The notes under the pieces: model-generated
The model's database searches: none
Seen by the model: only the letters and a program-made list of their open reading frames with translations
Told to the model about the DNA's origin: nothing
In this document: piece by piece, positions 3,789 through 62,680 of the stretch
Numbering within the stretch: position 1 is the first letter of the stretch
How the letters are laid out: each line of letters opens with the position of its first letter
Program-made: the position numbers and the translations under genes
DNA from: Sulfuritalea sp.
Lineage (GTDB): Bacteria > Pseudomonadota > Gammaproteobacteria > Burkholderiales > Rhodocyclaceae
DNA: 64,000 nucleotides
NCBI GenBank assembly: GCA_016716965.1
Contig: JADJUP010000026.1
Location: 56,604 to 120,603 of the forward strand
Reading direction: 5' to 3'

Positions 3789-4613
3789 TCACCAGAGCTT
3801 CCACCACGGCACGGCCCGGTCGAGGCCGCGTTCATAGTAGACGCTCTTGGGGAAGTTCTTGCGCATCACGCGTTCGGCATCGTCGCGCAGGTCGTTCATG
3901 CCGAGCAGGTCGTAGGCCTTGACCATGACGAACAGGGCCTCTTCGTTGGCGGGCGCGTCGGGGTAGGTCTTGATCGCCGTCTGCGCGCGGTTGATCGCGG
4001 CGACGTAGGCCTCGCGCTTCATGTAGTAGCGGGCGACGTGGACCTCGTGCGAGGCCAGCGCATTGACCAGGTACTTCATGCGCGCGGTGGCGTCCGGCGT
4101 GTAGCGGCTTTCGGGGAACTTGGTAACCAGCGCCTTGAAGGCCTCGAAGGAGTCGCGCGCGGCCTTCGGGTCGCGTTCGGTCAGGTCCTGCATGCTGATG
4201 TGGCCGAGCAGGCCGAGGTCCTCGTTGAAGTTGGCGAGGCCTTTCAGGTAATAGGCGTAGTCGACGTTGGGGTGGTTCGGGTGCAGGCGGATGAAGCGGT
4301 CGCAGGCGGCGATGGCGGAGGCCGGTTCGGCCTGGCGGTAATAGGCGTAGGCGACTTCGAGCTGCGCCTGCTGCGCATAGCGGCCGTAGGGGAAGCGGGC
4401 CTCGAGCTTTTCGAAATACTTGATCGCCTTGTCGTAGGAGCCGTCGGCCATGGCGCTCTTGGCTTCGCTGTAGAGCCGGTTGGCGGACCAGCTCGCGGTT
4501 TCGTCGACCACGTCGGGCAGGAGGCCGCAACCACCGAGCAGGGTGGTACCGGCAGCCGCGCCCAGAAACACGATGGGGGCGAGCGCCCGCAGGATTGCCG
4601 CTACACTACGCAT
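3789..4613 (-). CDS. bamD: Outer membrane protein assembly lipoprotein BamD
   Basis: Lipobox LLGGC, RFPYGRYAQQAQLEVAYAYY, HPNVDYAYYLKGL; divergent from rluD as is typical. Confidence 0.95.
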   Translation of the reverse strand: MRSVAAILRALAPIVFLGAAAGTTLLGGCGLLPDVVDETASWSANRLYSEAKSAMADGSYDKAIKYFEKLEARFPYGRYAQQAQLEVAYAYYRQAEPASAIAACDRFIRLHPNHPNVDYAYYLKGLANFNEDLGLLGHISMQDLTERDPKAARDSFEAFKALVTKFPESRYTPDATARMKYLVNALASHEVHVARYYMKREAYVAAINRAQTAIKTYPDAPANEEALFVMVKAYDLLGMNDLRDDAERVMRKNFPKSVYYERGLDRAVPWWKLW

Positions 4614-49451: not shown

Positions 49452-49465
49452 TTGATTCGGGTCAA
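49452..49465 (+). promoter_or_regulatory. FNR/DNR box upstream of nirS
   Basis: TTGAT-TCGG-GTCAA. Confidence 0.8.
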
Positions 49466-55680: not shown

Positions 55681-56146
55681 TCGTTCCGGCGCGGCGGCGG
55701 CGCCCGACGCGACCGACCGCCGCATCATCAACGCCCTGCAAGGGGATTTTCCGCTGGTGACCGAGCCCTATCGTCAGGTTGCCGACGGACTGGGTCTGAG
55801 CGAAGCGGAATTATTGCAACGGATCGACGCCATGCTCGAACGCAAGGTGCTGACGCGCTTCGGGCCGATGTTCCAGATCGAGCGTGCCGGCGGCGCGTTT
55901 GTCCTGGCGGCGATGAAGGTGCCGGAGGCGGACTTCGATCGTGTCGCGGCGCAGGTCAATGCCTTCCCCGAAGTGGCGCACAACTACCGCCGTGACCATG
56001 CGCTCAACATGTGGTTCGTGCTTGCCACGGCCACACCCGAGGGCATCGCCGCGGCCGTGGCCGCCATCGAGGCCGCCACCGGGCTGCCGGTGTTTCCCTT
56101 TCCCAAGGAACGCGAATACTTCGTGGAGATGAAACTCCATGCCTGA
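55673..56146 (+). CDS. nirG: Siroheme decarboxylase subunit NirG
   Basis: RFGPMFQIERAGG, VAHNYRRDHALNMWFV. Confidence 0.9.
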   Translation: MPDRSGAAAAPDATDRRIINALQGDFPLVTEPYRQVADGLGLSEAELLQRIDAMLERKVLTRFGPMFQIERAGGAFVLAAMKVPEADFDRVAAQVNAFPEVAHNYRRDHALNMWFVLATATPEGIAAAVAAIEAATGLPVFPFPKEREYFVEMKLHA

Positions 56147-56636
56147 TGCGGTCAAGACCGGACTCGATGCCCTCGACCGGCGCCTGATCGTCGCCACGCA
56201 GGGCGGCCTGCCGCGCGTGTCGCGGCCCTTCGATGCCATCGGCAAAGAACTCGGCATCGGTGGCGATGAAGTCATTGTCCGCCTGCAGCACATGCTGGAC
56301 ACCGGCGTGATCCGCCGCATCGGTGCCGTGCCCAACCACTACGCGATCGGCTATACCGCCAATGGAATGTCGGTGTGGGATGTCGACGATGCCCGCATCG
56401 ACGAGCTGGGCGCGCTGGTCGGCGCGTTGGGTTTCGTCACCCATTGTTACCGCCGCCCGCGTCGTTTGCCGGACTGGCCCTACAACCTGTTCGCCATGGT
56501 GCACAGCCAGACCCGCGACGAGGTTGCCGCCCGCGTCGCCGAGATCGCGTTTCTTTTGGGCGATGCCTGCCGGGCGCATGACATCCTCTACAGCACGGCG
56601 ATCCTGAAGAAGACCGGCCTGCGGATTTCCGGCTGA
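56139..56636 (+). CDS. nirH: Siroheme decarboxylase subunit NirH
   Basis: VPNHYAIGYTANGM, THCYRRPRRLPDWPYNLFAM, ILKKTGLR. Confidence 0.92.
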   Translation: MPDAVKTGLDALDRRLIVATQGGLPRVSRPFDAIGKELGIGGDEVIVRLQHMLDTGVIRRIGAVPNHYAIGYTANGMSVWDVDDARIDELGALVGALGFVTHCYRRPRRLPDWPYNLFAMVHSQTRDEVAARVAEIAFLLGDACRAHDILYSTAILKKTGLRISG

Positions 56637-56749: not shown

Positions 56750-57400
56750 CTACTGTTGTTCCTGCAGCGTGGTGACGTAGGCCAGGATGTCCTGCAGGTC
56801 GTCTTCCTTCAGCTTGTCCAGGAGTCCGCCAACGGCTTCCTCGTCGTGGGGCCGTTCGCCCTTGATGTATTTCTCCATCTGCCGCTTGAGGTAGCTGGTG
56901 TACTGCCCCGTCAGCATCGGGAACATGCCCCGGCCCATGCCGGTCTTGCCGTGACAGGTAACGCATTGCTTCTGGTAGAGCGCTTCGCCGTTGGCGAGAT
57001 TGCCGGGCACGCGCGGAATGATCATGACGCGTTCGGTCATGGTCAGGCGGGTCAGGGCGTCGTCGCTTTCCTTGAACACAGGCCATTTCGTCGGCAAGTC
57101 GATCGACGCCAGGTAGGCCGCGACGTCCTTGATGTCCTCGTCGGGCAGTTCGCGTTCCTGGGTGTAGGGATACATCGGGATGTTCACGCGCGTGCGGGCG
57201 CGGAACGCCTTGAGTTGTGATTCGAGATACTTGGCGCTTTGCCCCGCCAGGCGCGGGTACTCCCCACGAGATCCACCCTGGCCCAGTTCGCCGTGGCAGC
57301 CGGCGCAGGTGCTGTTGATCTCCTTGCCTTTCTCCAGGTTCTGCGCGTGGGCATACCCGCCCAGGGCGAGCAGCAACAGCAACAGCAGGCATCGCTTCAT
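56750..57400 (-). CDS. Diheme cytochrome c4-like protein
   Basis: Signal peptide; CAGCH and CVTCH; YPRLAGQ. Confidence 0.88.
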   Translation of the reverse strand: MKRCLLLLLLLALGGYAHAQNLEKGKEINSTCAGCHGELGQGGSRGEYPRLAGQSAKYLESQLKAFRARTRVNIPMYPYTQERELPDEDIKDVAAYLASIDLPTKWPVFKESDDALTRLTMTERVMIIPRVPGNLANGEALYQKQCVTCHGKTGMGRGMFPMLTGQYTSYLKRQMEKYIKGERPHDEEAVGGLLDKLKEDDLQDILAYVTTLQEQQ

Positions 57401-57425
57401 CGTGTTCCATCCATTGCAGGGTGAT

Positions 57426-57440
57426 GCGACCGATTGTCGC
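57426..57440. promoter_or_regulatory. RegA/RegR-type box between the c4 gene and regB
   Basis: GCGAC-CGATT-GTCGC. Confidence 0.55.
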
Positions 57441-57486
57441 AGACCGATGGCGCACTTTTCCTTGATCTGTGTCGGATAATCCGCGC

Positions 57487-58761
57487 ATGCCCGCATTCCC
57501 AGTCGCCGACGCCGGTGCCAACCTCTACCTCGACCAGCGCCGCAGCATCCTGTTGCGCTGGTGGTTGTTGCTGGCGGCGGCGATCGCCGTGTCGTCAGCG
57601 CCGACTATGCTCGGGCTGGGGCTGCCGCTTCTGCCCATGCTGGCCGTGCTGGTGGCGCTGGCGGGATTCAATGCCTGGCTGCAGTGGCGCTCGCCGCCGG
57701 CGTCGGTGTCGGCCGCCGAACTGTTTGGCCAGCTCTGCGTCGACCTGACGGCTCTGACGGTCCTGCTCTACCTTTCCGGCGGCGCCGCCAATCCGCTGAT
57801 CTCCCTGCTGCTGATTCCGGTCGCGGTGGCCGCGCTGTCGCTGCCGGGGCGGCTGACGGCCGCGGTGACGCTCCTGGCGGTGCTGGCCTACTCGATGCTG
57901 ACCGGGGTCTACCTGCCGCTCGCCATCGACGACGTCGAACGTGCCGCGCGACTCCATCTGGCCGGCATGTGGCTGACCTTCGTGGTGTCGGCGGCGATGA
58001 TCGCCTGGTTCGTCGCACGCATGACGGCATCGATCCGCGAACGCGACAGCCGGCTTGCCGCCGCGCGCGAGCAGGCCCTGCGCGACGAGCGCGTGGTGGC
58101 ACTGGGGGCGCTGGCGGCGGGCGCCGCGCACGAACTGGGCACGCCGCTGGCGACCATCGCGGTACTGGTCGGCGAACTGGAGCGCGATGCTTCGATCGAT
58201 GCCGATGCGCGCACCGACCTCGCACTGGTGCGCGAGCAGGTCGCGCTATGCAAGGGCATCATCAGCGGCATGGCGCAACGCAGCGGCGCGGCGCGCGCGG
58301 AATCGCTTCGGGCGCTGGATGCTGCTGCCTGGCTGCGCGGTGTCCTGGCGCGCTGGCAGGCGATGCGGCCACGGGCCAGTGCGGCCATTCAGATCGCGGG
58401 TCGCGGCGAGGTGCCGCGCCAGGCTTTCGATCCGGCCCTGGAGCAGGCCGTCGGCAACCTGCTCAACAACGCGGCCGACGCCGCTGCCGGGACTATTCGC
58501 GTCGAACTGGACTGGGACGACGTTTGGCTCCGGCTGACGATCAGCGATGACGGGCAGGGGTTCGCCGCGGAGGTGCTGCGTCGCGGCGGCCGGGAGGCGC
58601 TGCCGGCCAGCCATGGCGGCGCCGGAATCGGCCTGCTGCTGGCCTTCTCGGCGGTGGAACGTGGTGGTGGCCGCATTTTGCTGGACAACCCGCCCGGCGG
58701 CGGCGCGCGGGCACGCATCGAGCTGCCGAGGGCGGACAACACGGAGACGGCAAGCACATGA
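57487..58761 (+). CDS. regB: Redox sensor kinase RegB/PrrB family
   Basis: GGAANPL (GGxxNPF variant), AAHELGTPL, Cys in REQVALCKGII. Confidence 0.85.
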   Translation: MPAFPVADAGANLYLDQRRSILLRWWLLLAAAIAVSSAPTMLGLGLPLLPMLAVLVALAGFNAWLQWRSPPASVSAAELFGQLCVDLTALTVLLYLSGGAANPLISLLLIPVAVAALSLPGRLTAAVTLLAVLAYSMLTGVYLPLAIDDVERAARLHLAGMWLTFVVSAAMIAWFVARMTASIRERDSRLAAAREQALRDERVVALGALAAGAAHELGTPLATIAVLVGELERDASIDADARTDLALVREQVALCKGIISGMAQRSGAARAESLRALDAAAWLRGVLARWQAMRPRASAAIQIAGRGEVPRQAFDPALEQAVGNLLNNAADAAAGTIRVELDWDDVWLRLTISDDGQGFAAEVLRRGGREALPASHGGAGIGLLLAFSAVERGGGRILLDNPPGGGARARIELPRADNTETAST

Positions 58762-59300
58762 ATGAAGCGATACTGCTGATCGAGGATGACGCGACTTTCA
58801 GCGCCGCACTGGCACGAGCCCTCAAGCGGCGCGGCCACGAAGTCTTTGTCGCAGCGACTCCCGAGGCGGCTCTGGAGCGGGCGCAGGCAGACGTGCCGGA
58901 CTGGGTCGTGCTCGACCTAAACCTTGATGGCGCATCGGGAATGGCGCTGCTCCCACGGCTGCGGAAGGCCATGCCCGAATGCCGCATCGTGGTGCTCACG
59001 GGCTACGCCAGCATCAGCACCGCCGTTGACGCAATCAAGCTGGGTGCCGTTCAGTACCTCGCCAAGCCGGTCGACGTCGATACGCTGTTGCGTGCCTTCG
59101 GCCATGCCCCGGGCACCGAGCCGGCGGTTGCGGACGCCGCACCGCCGGCGGCGCCGATGTCGGTGGATCGTATGGAGTGGGAACACATCCAGCGCGTGCT
59201 GCGCGAACACCAGGGCAACATATCGGCCACGGCAAGGGCGCTCAACATGCATCGCCGCACCCTGCAACGCAAGCTGCTCAAGCGTCCGGCGAAGCAGTAA
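58758..59300 (+). CDS. regA: Response regulator RegA/PrrA family
   Basis: MSVDRMEWEHIQRVL...NISATARALNMHRRTLQRKL. Confidence 0.92.
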   Translation: MNEAILLIEDDATFSAALARALKRRGHEVFVAATPEAALERAQADVPDWVVLDLNLDGASGMALLPRLRKAMPECRIVVLTGYASISTAVDAIKLGAVQYLAKPVDVDTLLRAFGHAPGTEPAVADAAPPAAPMSVDRMEWEHIQRVLREHQGNISATARALNMHRRTLQRKLLKRPAKQ

Positions 59301-59303
59301 AGG

Positions 59304-59789
59304 TCAAAATCCGACGGCGACGCGGTAGGGCACGGCGATCCGCTGCCTGCCGGATTCCACCTGCACCGTCACTATCCAGTTCATTCCGCCGGAGACACAG
59401 ACCGGCAGCGAGGCTTCGCCCGCATGGCGACCGTTGCCGGTCGCTGCGAGTTCGATCCGGTTGTAGCCCATGTTCATCGTCTCGCCGGCGAAATCGACTT
59501 CCACTTTGCTCGCCTGAATACCGGTGAGCAGTACTTCGACGCGCAGCGGCGTCAGGATTGGAATCGGCCGCGGCGCGATCGACAGCTCGATGCGCGTGCC
59601 ATCCGGCAGGACGGCGGCGCAGGCCTGGCGCTGCAGGTCACACCCGTCTTGCGGCTTCGCCGTGACATCGGCCTTCGGCAGCAGCAGGGGTGACCAGTAA
59701 TAGCCGGCGCCGGCGATGCCGACGAGGATGGCGAGCATCGCCAGCGTGACCAGGCTGGAACCGGACTTTTGGGCAGGTTCTTCGGCCAT
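59304..59789 (-). CDS. Membrane-anchored hypothetical protein (YtkA/FixH-like)
   Basis: One N-terminal TM helix; C-x6-C, GETMNMG and LPVC motifs. Confidence 0.7.
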   Translation of the reverse strand: MAEEPAQKSGSSLVTLAMLAILVGIAGAGYYWSPLLLPKADVTAKPQDGCDLQRQACAAVLPDGTRIELSIAPRPIPILTPLRVEVLLTGIQASKVEVDFAGETMNMGYNRIELAATGNGRHAGEASLPVCVSGGMNWIVTVQVESGRQRIAVPYRVAVGF

Positions 59790-59834
59790 TACTTATCCAT
59801 GCATAGGTCGATTCGATCGATTGCGTTCGGCGGA

Positions 59835-59848
59835 TTGATTCTGGTCAA
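59835..59848. promoter_or_regulatory. FNR/DNR box upstream of nosZ
   Basis: TTGAT-TCTG-GTCAA; 15 of 16 nt identical to the nirS box including the trailing GG. Confidence 0.78.
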
Positions 59849-59877
59849 GGCCGACAAGGGGTGTTCCGGTTCAAAGT

Positions 59878-59892
59878 GCGACAAATTGCCGC
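59878..59892. promoter_or_regulatory. RegA/RegR box upstream of nosZ
   Basis: GCGAC-AAATT-GCCGC, the reverse complement of GCGGC-N5-GTCGC. Confidence 0.65.
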
Positions 59893-59971
59893 AGGACGAA
59901 TGGCGGCGTGCCGAAGTTGGACGCATACAGGGCAGCAATTGGAAGTATCAACCGGAATGGGAGCAAAAAAC

Positions 59972-62260
59972 ATGAAACAGTTTAGCAAGCAAGCCACCAC
60001 GCTGCTGTTGGCGGCCGGGATGGGCATGGCGGCGACCGCATTGGCGGCCGAAAGCCTGCAGGACGTGCTCAAGGCGCGCGGCCTGAGCCAGCAGGATCTG
60101 CTGGCGGCGGCCAAGACCTACGTGCCGACCGGCAAGCGCGACGAGTTCGTCGCCTTCAGTTCGGGCGGCCAGTCGGGCCAGGTCATCGTCTATGCCATTC
60201 CGTCGATGCGCATCCTCAAGTACATCGGCGTGTTCACGCCGGAACCCTGGCAGGGCTACGGCTTTGACGAAAGCTCGAAGAAGGTGCTGGCCGGCGGCCG
60301 CATCGACGGCAAGGACATCACCTGGGGCGACACGCACCATCCGGCGATCTCCGAGACCAATGGCGAGTACGACGGCCAGTTCCTCTTCATCAACGACAAG
60401 GCCAATCCGCGCCTGGCGGTGATCGACCTGCGCGACTTCGAAACCAAGCAGATCGTGGTCAACCCGATCTTCAAGTCGGAGCACGGCGGCGCTTTCGTCA
60501 GCTCCAACACCGAGTACGTGATCGAGGCCGCGCAGTATGCCGCGCCGCTGGAGAACAAGAAGTTCTTCCCGCTCGAAGAGTTCAATGAAAAGTATCGTGG
60601 CGGCGTGACCTACTGGAAGTTCGATCGCAAGGAAGGGCGCATCGATACCAAGAAGTCGTTCTCGCTCGAACTGCCTCCCTACTCGCAAGACCTCTCGGAC
60701 TTCGGCAAGGGGCCGTCCGACGGCTGGTCGTTCACCAACTCGTTCTGTTCCGAGCGCTACGTCGGCGGCATCGAAAAGGGCCGTCCGCCGTATGAAGCCG
60801 GCTGTTCGGCCAAGGACACCGACTACCTGCACGTGATCAACTGGAAGAAGGCCGCCGAACTGGTGGCCCAGGGCAAGGCCAAGAAAATCAACGGCCATGA
60901 CGTAATCATGATGGAAACGGCAATCAAGGAAGGCATCCTCTTCCTGGTACCCGAGCCCAAGTCGCCGCACGGCGTCGACGTGACCCCGGACGGCAAGTTC
61001 CTCACCGTCGCCGGCAAGCTCGACACGCACGTGTCCGTCTATTCCTTCGAGAAGATCATGGCCGCCATCAAGGCCGGCAAGTTCGAATCCAAGGACGCCT
61101 ACGGGATTCCGGTGATCGGCATGAAGGATGCGCTGCATACGCAGGTTGCGCTCGGCCTCGGCCCGCTGCATACCCAGTACGACAGCAAACCCTGCGTGGC
61201 CTACACGTCGCTGTACGTCGACTCGCAGGTGGCCAAGTGGAACTTCTGCGAAGGCAAGGTGCTCGACAAGATCAGCGTGCACTACAACATCGGCCATCTG
61301 ATGACCATGGAAGGCGATTCGACCAAGCCGGCCGGCAAGTACCTCGTCGCGCTGAACAAGCTCGCCATCGACCGCTTCGTGCCGACCGGACCGCTGCATC
61401 CGCAGAACCACCAGCTGATCGACATCAGCAACGACAAGATGCAGTTGCTGTATGACATGCCGCTGCCGCTGGGCGAGCCGCACTATGTCGTCGCCATCGA
61501 TGCCAAGAAGCTGAAGCCCGCCGTGCGCTACAAGGTCGGCACCGACAGCCGCACCGACAAGGCACACCCGGGTGCGGTGCGCGCCGGCGAGGAGAAAGTG
61601 GTCAAGAAGGGCAACAAGGTCGAAGTCTTCGCCACCCTGATCCGCTCGCACATCACGCCGGAAACCATCGAAGTCGATGTCGGCGACGAAGTGACGATCA
61701 ACCTGACCAACCTCGAGCGCGCGCAGGACGAAACCCACGGCTTCACCGTATCGACCTACAACGTGCATGCGTCGGTCGAGCCGGGCAAGACTGTTGCGGT
61801 GAAGTTCAAGGCCGACAAGGAAGGTGTCTATCCCTACTACTGCACGGAGTTCTGTTCCGCGCTGCACCTGGAGATGCAGGGCTACCTGCTGGTCAAGCCG
61901 AAGGGCTGGAAGCCGACCAAGACGACGCTGGCCAAGGGTAGCTACACCGAAGCCGACTACAAGGCGACAGTGAAGAAGGTGGCCGACACCCAGGCGATCA
62001 TCGACTCCGTCGTGGCCTACATCACCAGCGTGAACTACAAGGACTTCCCGGATGTCGTGGCCATGGTCGAGGATGCGTTCGACCAGTTGGGCAAGACCAA
62101 GGGCCTGAAGGAGAAGCATGAAGGCTTCGCCGCCAAGAAGGATTGGGAAAACGCCAACCTGTGGGCAGAGCAGATCTGGCAATACCAGGTCAAGACCGCC
62201 GACCTCGGTTTGCGCGCCAAGACTTACCTCGAGCAGAACGGGGCCAAGAAGGTCAAGTAA
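59972..62260 (+). CDS. nosZ: Nitrous-oxide reductase, clade II (Sec-dependent)
   Basis: Sec signal without RR; DTHHP, EHGG, PHGVD, PLHTQ, HYNIGH; CuA THG...CTEFCSALHLEM; about 115 aa C-terminal extension. Confidence 0.96.
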   Translation: MKQFSKQATTLLLAAGMGMAATALAAESLQDVLKARGLSQQDLLAAAKTYVPTGKRDEFVAFSSGGQSGQVIVYAIPSMRILKYIGVFTPEPWQGYGFDESSKKVLAGGRIDGKDITWGDTHHPAISETNGEYDGQFLFINDKANPRLAVIDLRDFETKQIVVNPIFKSEHGGAFVSSNTEYVIEAAQYAAPLENKKFFPLEEFNEKYRGGVTYWKFDRKEGRIDTKKSFSLELPPYSQDLSDFGKGPSDGWSFTNSFCSERYVGGIEKGRPPYEAGCSAKDTDYLHVINWKKAAELVAQGKAKKINGHDVIMMETAIKEGILFLVPEPKSPHGVDVTPDGKFLTVAGKLDTHVSVYSFEKIMAAIKAGKFESKDAYGIPVIGMKDALHTQVALGLGPLHTQYDSKPCVAYTSLYVDSQVAKWNFCEGKVLDKISVHYNIGHLMTMEGDSTKPAGKYLVALNKLAIDRFVPTGPLHPQNHQLIDISNDKMQLLYDMPLPLGEPHYVVAIDAKKLKPAVRYKVGTDSRTDKAHPGAVRAGEEKVVKKGNKVEVFATLIRSHITPETIEVDVGDEVTINLTNLERAQDETHGFTVSTYNVHASVEPGKTVAVKFKADKEGVYPYYCTEFCSALHLEMQGYLLVKPKGWKPTKTTLAKGSYTEADYKATVKKVADTQAIIDSVVAYITSVNYKDFPDVVAMVEDAFDQLGKTKGLKEKHEGFAAKKDWENANLWAEQIWQYQVKTADLGLRAKTYLEQNGAKKVK

Positions 62261-62666: not shown

Positions 62667-62680
62667 TTGATGTCCATCAA
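62667..62680 (+). promoter_or_regulatory. Consensus FNR/DNR box
   Basis: TTGAT-GTCC-ATCAA, 60 bp before the next ATG. Confidence 0.85.

Follow-up and report, generated by a model that had tools for sequence, protein, structure and literature searches.

The DNA analysed here, a 64,000-nucleotide stretch of Sulfuritalea sp. (hereafter the window; positions 56,604 to 120,603 of contig JADJUP010000026.1, GenBank assembly GCA_016716965.1), belongs to contig C26 of an assembly of 4.38 Mb (G000) and holds genes for a RegB-like sensor histidine kinase and a RegA-like response regulator close to nosZ, the gene for a clade II nitrous oxide (N2O) reductase. The gene order is nirH-like, dihaem cytochrome c (minus strand), regB, regA, ORF161 (minus strand; a small membrane protein), and nosZ (table 1). 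An earlier reading made from the letters alone (the sequence-only reading) had placed regB-regA between nirH and nosZ, and the gene order bears this out for 57487–59300. The coordinate that it gave as the start of the feature, 56750, is the 3′ end of the cytochrome c gene rather than regB, and neither the cytochrome c gene nor ORF161 figured in its account. NosZ scores 921.7 bits against TIGR04246 (cut-off 625) versus 393.8 bits against the twin-arginine translocation (TAT)-type profile TIGR04244, which places it in clade II.

No biological sink for the greenhouse gas N2O other than N2O reductase is known. Organisms with clade II NosZ are regarded as key N2O consumers, and the Rhodocyclaceae among them are abundant in wastewater plants and aquifers. 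How nosZ is switched in clade II organisms is poorly known, and the analysis offers an operator, a promoter architecture, a candidate regulator, and a compact predicted regulon. We suggest that the single RegB/RegA system of this genome may serve as a dedicated regulator of an island for clade II N2O reductase and copper supply, rather than as a global redox regulator.

Table 1. Features of the regBA–nosZ locus, in window coordinates.
Feature	Coordinates	Strand	Remarks
nirDL/G/H-type sirohaem decarboxylase genes	end at 56636; last, nirH-like subunit, 56139–56636	+	
Dihaem c-type cytochrome gene	56750–57400	−	Pfam Cytochrom_C (two stretches) and Cytochrome_CBB3; divergent from regB
Operator 1, TGCGACCGATTGTCGCA	57425–57441		core 57426–57440, GCGACCGATTGTCGC
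Degenerate FNR-like box, TTGATCTGTGTCGG	57462–57475		between operator 1 and the −10-like element of regB; read from the sequence
−10-like element, GATAAT	57475–57480	+	6 nt before the regB ATG; no Shine-Dalgarno sequence
RegB-like sensor histidine kinase, 424 aa	57487–58761	+	NF033792 (ActS/PrrB/RegB) match
RegA-like response regulator, 180 aa	58758–59300	+	NF033791; Pfam Response_reg and HTH_8; start overlaps the regB stop
ORF161, small membrane protein gene	59304–59789	−	divergent from nosZ
FNR/DNR-type box, TTGATTCTGGTCAA	59835–59848		ORF161–nosZ divergent region
−10-like element, TTCAAAGT	59870–59877	+	weak (TTCAAA); 22 nt after the FNR-type box, directly before operator 2
Operator 2, TGCGACAAATTGCCGCA	59877–59893		core 59878–59892, GCGACAAATTGCCGC
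Sec-type clade II nosZ	59972–62260	+	TIGR04246 match; predicted target

A RegB/RegA pair with an altered quinone pocket

Across its full length (profile positions 11–420 of 423), RegB is matched by the NCBIfam profile NF033792 at 247.2 bits, by far the best family although below the cut-off of 350; NF045988 gives 159.7 bits, below its cut-off of 570. Likewise, NF033791 is clearly the best family for RegA and matches over its full length (2–171 of 173) at 181.9 bits, below the cut-off of 250. The kinase has HisKA and HATPase_c matches and an H-box, AAHELGTPL, with its histidine at residue 215 (H215), the counterpart in Rhodobacter capsulatus RegB being the phospho-histidine His225. A redox-box cysteine, C255, lies 40 residues past H215 and aligns with the cysteine of homologues from Phyllobacterium and Robbsia; the redox-box cysteine of R. 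capsulatus RegB is Cys265 (PMC3000548, PMC8191878). The regulator consists of a Response_reg domain (residues 5–113) and a Fis-type HTH_8 domain (137–175), with no AAA+ domain, and its recognition helix, LNMHRRTLQR, is identical to those of PrrA (PDB 1umq) and PDB 3rqi. The latter, presumably a Burkholderia protein, is the closest solved relative of RegA (E = 4e-48) and is nearly identical over the C-terminal helix-turn-helix (HTH) stretch. RegA of R. capsulatus reportedly binds copper through Cys156; in the alignment with PrrA that column holds a His in the protein described here, and the R. capsulatus cysteine seems not to be conserved. Taken together, the full-length best-family matches, the catalytic residues, and the recognition helix uphold the assignment of the two proteins to the RegB and RegA families. 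The genome encodes only one RegB-family kinase, and the absence of a second RegB paralogue rules out that the one beside nosZ is a dedicated extra copy.

The sequence-only reading had noted that RegB carries GGxxNPL instead of NPF and had proposed that the system senses the quinone pool. The first observation is correct (GGAANPL, residues 98–104), and the second is doubtful. Wu and Bauer found R31, Q38, N110, and F112 to be fully conserved in ∼100 RegB homologues and needed for ubiquinone binding, and an F112A substitution makes R. capsulatus RegB constitutively active (PMC3000548). Here, R31 (as R24) and the Asn of N110 are kept, and Q38 and F112 are replaced by A31 and L104, respectively. 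The GGXXNPF heptapeptide and the glutamine are thus both lacking, and two of four ubiquinone residues are replaced. The Q38 column holds Met in Azonexus and Zoogloea and the F112 column holds Leu or Val in the other aligned Rhodocyclaceae/Zoogloea, while homologues from Robbsia (Burkholderiaceae) and Phyllobacterium (an alphaproteobacterium) keep both residues. Because two quinone-binding residues are replaced, quinone-pool sensing cannot be assumed, and a natural RegB lineage with such a pocket offers a test case for the current view of how RegB perceives its signal.

Conserved boxes and predicted promoter geometry

Two inverted repeats flank the regBA–ORF161 genes. The GCGAC-N5-GTCGC repeat described in the sequence-only reading at 57426 is present as the core of operator 1, whose center is ∼54 bp before the regB ATG and 26–40 bp before the cytochrome c ATG. 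The box at 59878 is where it was said to be, with exactly 29 bases between TTGATTCTGGTCAA and the core of operator 2, but it is not a perfect RegR box, as it has one mismatch at best to GNGRCRTTNNGNCGC. It is the minus strand of operator 2, TGCGGCAATTTGTCGCA, that gives a perfect fit, to the PrrA motif YSCGGC(5)GWCRMA, and the box also fits the R. capsulatus RegA motif from chromatin immunoprecipitation sequencing (ChIP-seq; RegR, PrrA, and RegA motifs are used as quoted in PMC5506826). The sequence-only reading had RegA boxes at both the nir and nos flanks, which holds for the nos side; the box at 57426 belongs to the divergent cytochrome c/regB promoter region and not to nir, and an FNR box on the nir side, at 49452, was not among the FNR/RegA-box pairs found in a genome-wide pairing search.

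In the window, the FNR-type pattern has five matches versus 0.12 expected, and the exact palindrome of the RegA-type box occurs twice versus 0.40 expected, a marginal excess since five of 100 shuffles reach two. With counts of the repeat within the range of chance, no proof can be drawn from the window taken alone. The core pattern shows no enrichment of its own, and the case for operators rests on position, an A/T-rich spacer, and conservation.

Both boxes hold their positions in ∼40 related loci of three genera, Sulfuritalea, Azonexus, and Dechloromonas, so the conservation in relatives that the sequence-only reading had listed as a check on its proposal was found. The operator consensus is 15–17 bp long, TGCGRC-N5-GYCGCA, with an A/T-rich center. 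Sulfuritalea genomes, with RegB proteins that are 64–88% identical, usually have the gene order of the window, and in nearly all of their linked loci TGCGRC-NNATT-GTCGCA lies 60–75 bp before regB and GCGRCAWATTGYCGC lies before nosZ, its start 43–45 bp downstream of the start of an FNR-type box. A second copy of the box is often found exactly 16 bp downstream at the nosZ genes of relatives and is lacking in the window. In Azonexus and Dechloromonas, RegB is ∼50% identical and the order is cytochrome c (minus strand), regB, regA, SCO1/SenC (minus strand), ORF161 (minus strand), and nosZ. There, TGCGGCGAATTGTCGCA precedes regB and G(C/T)GRCAAATTGYC(G/A)C precedes nosZ, and the other intergenic DNA has diverged.

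The boxes also keep their places where the neighborhood changes. In three genomes (G017, G021, and G010), regBA-ORF161 is apart from nosZ and adjoins a TonB-dependent receptor gene or a permease operon instead; the unlinked nosZ is still preceded by an FNR-type box and then GCGACAAATTGCCGC at an unchanged distance, and the gene adjoining regBA-ORF161 also has an FNR box followed by a RegA-type box. Operator 1 is retained at two loci (L021 and L023) where the upstream cytochrome gene is missing. In another genome (G018:C42; L045/L035), an insertion of ∼3.3 kb separates ORF161 from nosZ. The FNR-type box is gone from the nosZ promoter of this genome, but two RegA-type boxes remain, at −95 and −79 from the ATG, and an FNR box and two RegA-type boxes lie beside ORF161. 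Judged by these alignments, we regard both boxes as real, conserved cis-elements of RegA/PrrA type, and RegA is predicted from the conserved motif-matching sites to bind such GCG-type inverted repeats.

At regB, the mRNA is probably leaderless because a −10-like hexamer stands 6–7 nt from the ATG without a Shine-Dalgarno sequence, which would put the center of operator 1 near −54. Sulfuritalea, Azonexus, Dechloromonas, and Zoogloea share the arrangement (G/C)ATAAT-N6-7-ATG (the window and loci L010–L031 and L081–L110), and TAGAAT-N6-ATG is found at regB in a locus from another family of the order (L029). The degenerate FNR-like box before regB is conserved in relatives as well (TTGACGCACATCAC in Azonexus). 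It may drive the divergent cytochrome c gene, with operator 1 over the −10 of that promoter.

At nosZ, we compared 28 related promoters of Sulfuritalea, Azonexus, and Dechloromonas anchored on the box. The same layout is shared by 27 of them: an FNR-type box, 22 nt, a −10-like hexamer, 2 nt, the operator (28–30 bp after the FNR-type box), one A, and often a second operator. The hexamer, weak in the window, is TTAAAT, TATAAT, TAGAAT, or TACAGT in relatives. Such a layout suggests a promoter of class II FNR type, whose FNR-type box would be centered ∼41.5 bp before the predicted start. Since the hexamer directly precedes the box, the operator would span about −5 to +10 and cover the predicted start, and the second copy in relatives would lie at about +12 to +26; the proximity of the nosZ box to the predicted transcription start site (TSS), raised in the sequence-only reading, is supported by the comparison. 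Repression or gating is the natural reading that such a predicted geometry suggests. A consensus scanner found no full sigma-70 consensus promoter at nosZ, as expected if the promoter is activator dependent. The box at 59835 reads as a generic FNR/CRP-type site, with a sequence common to DNR and FNR (or NNR) types. Besides a divergent CRP/FNR-type gene in the island, at least six full ones are present in the genome. With a generic box and multiple paralogues, no nitric oxide (NO) signal can be inferred.

A compact predicted regulon and the distribution of regBA

A position weight matrix (PWM) built from the conserved sites was scanned over the genome. The best hit genome-wide is the nosZ operator (24.1 bits), and the other top intergenic hits are C26:156831 (21.7 bits), C26:139236 (21.6), regB (17.1), and C26:148279 (16.0), such that all top hits in intergenic DNA are in the C26 island. 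No targets beyond the island were found among the hits examined; those outside (e.g., at a transposase-like HTH gene and a probable EPSP synthase gene) are in or beside coding sequence and were taken as chance. A RegA-type box lies 38–50 bp away from three of the 57 TTGA-N6-TCAA boxes of the genome, and all three are in the same island: at nosZ, at C26:139196/139236, and at C26:156782, which has a box on each side. Our own estimate from box densities gives ∼0.2–0.6 expected paired loci.

Genes downstream of paired FNR boxes and operators are consistent with a copper theme. One pair precedes genes for a SCO1/SenC homologue and an FtsX-type permease, and another serves two NosL-like genes and a cytochrome cd1-like gene that are divergent from a TonB-dependent receptor gene. 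A lone operator, with no FNR box nearby, lies between a weakly Crp-like gene and a DsbD_2-family gene. At this locus (G000:C26:147594-148311; L138 2095-2812), the Crp-like gene encodes a very divergent Crp/FNR-family protein of ∼205 aa with weak Crp HTH and cNMP hits; its divergent DsbD_2-family partner starts MDHSHHAH, the spacer that holds the RegA-type operator is 98 bp, and a gene for a P-type ATPase with a heavy-metal-associated (HMA) domain is just upstream. At ccoN, a classical RegA target, an FNR box is present and a RegA-type box was not found (best score −7.2). In four of five further Sulfuritalea genomes searched, at least three A/T-rich-spacer sites are clustered on the nosZ contig or near regB/nosZ, and two sites of G000 recur in G044 either identically or with one change. 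Because targets are confined to the nos/copper island and none is at ccoN, the predicted regulon is not one of global respiration but a compact one for N2O reductase and its copper supply.

Of 52 genomes of the genus, 37 have both RegB and clade II NosZ, five have RegB without clade II NosZ, two have clade II NosZ without RegB, and eight have neither, a co-occurrence that is descriptive only because the genomes are related and many are incomplete. The nearly complete genomes without RegB (G005, G019, and G023) have no clade II nosZ. Two of these, G005 and G019, have a different nosZ that is only ∼42% identical to the clade II gene (G005:C9 and G019:C288; L140–L143), and the G005 copy of the divergent nosZ has an internal TGA. 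A genome that is 98% complete and yielded no nosZ has a regB with an internal TAG stop (G011:C9:50752-51999; L021/L036), perhaps a regulator decaying once its target was lost.

The opposite case is a metagenome-assembled genome (MAG; G007, 85% complete) in which regBA is cleanly deleted and nosZ and its operator are intact. This is compatible with a regulator that is nonessential and negative. At the junction (L139, G007:C184:7218-12506, ∼4441–4600), the cytochrome c promoter region, with operator and FNR-like box, runs into the 3′ end of ORF161; the break is just before the −10-like element of regB, and nosZ is preceded by a tandem duplication of its FNR box.

Two neighbors of regBA are also conserved. 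The dihaem cytochrome c gene is beside regB in Sulfuritalea, Azonexus, and Dechloromonas, and ORF161 invariably neighbors regA; it adjoins SCO1/SenC, in the same orientation, in Azonexus and Dechloromonas. ORF161 encodes a periplasmic immunoglobulin (Ig)-like beta-sandwich anchored by a transmembrane segment, with C50, C57, M105-N-M107, and C131 invariant in the alignment. It has no Pfam, NCBIfam, or other family match even at E = 1. Foldseek searches with its AlphaFold model (predicted local distance difference test, pLDDT, of 80) return generic Ig/FN3 folds only, and a FixH/YtkA-like lead is subthreshold (Atlas score 0.86). On the grounds of its conserved Cys/Met residues and the adjacency to SCO1, we offer as a guess that ORF161 may be a periplasmic copper-handling partner of Sco for NosZ.

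Proposed gating of nosZ by RegA and its alternatives

In the mechanism that we propose, RegA would bind the 17-bp operator ∼54 bp upstream of regB to autoregulate regBA, at a site that also overlaps what is likely the −10 element of the divergent cytochrome c gene. It would also be bound across the predicted start of nosZ within a promoter of class II FNR/DNR-type geometry, beside FNR-type boxes at the SCO1/SenC–permease and divergent TonB-receptor/NosL-NosL-cd1-like promoters, and without an FNR box between the Crp-like and DsbD-like genes. The result would be a gate with two keys: an FNR-family activator would switch promoters on at low oxygen (or with NO), and RegA at the start site would hold them back until the signal sensed by RegB changes. 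We infer RegA as the binder, a negative effect at nosZ, and a signal through RegB from the genes, sites, conservation, and geometry described above, and put the probability that RegA binds the operators, autoregulates regBA, and gates the FNR-type nosZ and copper-delivery promoters by occupying their start sites at roughly 0.6. Of the interpretation offered in the sequence-only reading, the family assignment, the conserved boxes, and the start-site position are retained, and NO control, quinone sensing, and the nir-side box are not; the compact regulon predicted here did not figure in it. Repression at nosZ is suggested by the predicted geometry, by the intact nosZ in the MAG with regBA deleted, and by the precedent of R. 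capsulatus, in which RegA represses nosZ, nosR, and accessory genes (PMC5359404).

Several points weigh against such gating. Both proteins are under the NCBIfam equivalog cut-offs. The generic GCGNC-N5-GNCGC pattern occurs 25 times in the window versus 14.4 expected, which is not significant, and genome-wide the strict 17-mer has no enrichment over a reversed-pattern control, any signal being confined to A/T-rich spacers, intergenic placement, and clustering. All of the promoter geometry is predicted, and at the other island promoters the spacing from FNR box to operator varies from 38 to 50 bp with no obvious −10. The kinase activity of canonical RegB peaks under reducing conditions, in which case it would be physiologically odd for an anaerobic reductase to be repressed by phosphorylated RegA. 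Furthermore, RegR of Bradyrhizobium japonicum has a positive effect on nos genes, with an electrophoretic mobility shift at nosR and binding to the norC promoter (PMC4064962), and RegA of Burkholderia pseudomallei positively controls nosZ as found by RNA sequencing (RNA-seq; PMC8191878).

These precedents favor an alternative in which RegA is not a repressor but co-activates nosZ and the copper genes with the FNR-type factor, by bending DNA or contacting RNA polymerase. Co-activation when the electron-transport chain is reduced would make physiological sense, and the site near −54 of regB is at a classical position for an activator. In contrast, at nosZ the site and its second copy would cover about −5 to +10 and about +12 to +26 of the predicted start, where bound proteins usually block transcription, and nosZ is intact in the MAG that lacks regBA. 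We consider co-activation unlikely, while taking it seriously.

Comparisons with known systems bear on what is being regulated. As in R. capsulatus RegB/RegA (PrrB/PrrA of R. sphaeroides), there is an H-box, a redox-box cysteine at +40, a regulator of ∼180 aa with the same helix, GCG-type repeats, and a genomic link to the copper chaperone SenC/Sco, here in Azonexus and Dechloromonas. The system differs in that Q38 and F112 are replaced and that its genes, housed within a clade II nos island, come and go with that island. Its predicted regulon is confined to a few local targets without a ccoN site, where the alphaproteobacterial system is global, and its operator is sharp and well conserved, unlike the degenerate alphaproteobacterial sites. 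RegS/RegR of B. japonicum/diazoefficiens controls nos and copper genes (copCAB in that case; PMC4064962), as is predicted here, and is alike in its box, to which those here have one mismatch. However, the effect of RegR on the clade I nosRZDFYLX operon is positive and exerted from upstream sites, and the site here is predicted to overlap the start of a clade II gene with no NosR. RegAB of B. pseudomallei is also a betaproteobacterial RegBA system, with nosZ among RegA- and FNR-dependent genes (PMC8191878), but Burkholderia RegB keeps GGXXNPF and the remaining conserved features, its system is a global master regulator, its nosZ is of clade I, and no operator was defined. A study of the related Accumulibacter states that RegAB binding sites had yet to be identified (PMC6446978). 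RegBA control of nos genes is already known in alphaproteobacteria and has been suggested by RNA-seq in Burkholderia. In the literature searched, we found no account of RegBA within clade II nos islands, a defined operator for such a pair, a composite of FNR box and start-site operator, a compact copper/N2O reductase regulon, or an altered quinone pocket.

The loss of two of four quinone residues, along with Sco/SenC and the Cys/Met-rich ORF161 as neighbors, raises a further idea, which we hold to be quite unlikely: rather than quinone, RegB may sense how far N2O reductase is loaded with copper, or the electron flux through it, via SCO1/ORF161 and its redox cysteine, with RegA as a checkpoint that couples nosZ transcription to copper supply, in mutual antagonism with the FNR-type activator.

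A copper theme could instead be due to a different regulator, encoded in the island or responsive to copper, that binds the repeat and resembles RegA/PrrA specificity by coincidence. The predicted regulon is centered on copper (SCO1, NosL, and the TonB receptor), the island has its own divergent Crp-like gene, and alphaproteobacterial RegA-type motifs are notoriously degenerate (PMC4263372, PMC5506826). Nevertheless, the site is found before regB in three genera even when neighbors differ, and it travels with whichever gene is beside regBA-ORF161, be it nosZ, the TonB receptor gene, or the permease operon. Moreover, the nosZ box is an exact PrrA motif and RegA has the recognition helix of PrrA. 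Known operators of the copper regulators CsoR, CueR, and CopY look different from this repeat. We find a different regulator decidedly improbable and return to RegA as the predicted binder.

Short G+C-rich inverted repeats at or just after a predicted start could instead act as nucleic-acid hairpins, as in a stem-loop of the 5′ untranslated region that stabilizes or attenuates mRNA. The stem would be only 5–6 bp, and the regB site is upstream of a gene that is probably leaderless. In the 28 nosZ promoters, the variable half-site positions are A/C in 12, G/T in nine, and Watson-Crick in only seven. Because half-sites are noncomplementary in 21 of 28, pairing has not been selected and the pattern points to a protein-binding site that is asymmetric in the way the PrrA motif is; we rejected the hairpin as very improbable. 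Least probable of all, to the point of being negligible, are functionless chance palindromes in G+C-rich DNA, for which the window and genome-wide pattern counts above would speak but which are effectively refuted by the 28-promoter comparison, by position-specific conservation in ∼40 loci of three genera, Azonexus and Dechloromonas included, with diverged flanks, and by co-occurrence with FNR boxes exclusively in one island.

Additional features lie downstream of nosZ. A perfect FNR palindrome, TTGATGTCCATCAA, is at 62667–62680. The listed start (62699) of a dihaem cytochrome c gene follows after a mere 18 nt, and the true start codon of that gene is probably further downstream. The nos island continues at G000:C26:121197-129468 (L048) with two NosD-family genes and genes for a 4Fe-4S protein and a UbiA-family prenyltransferase.

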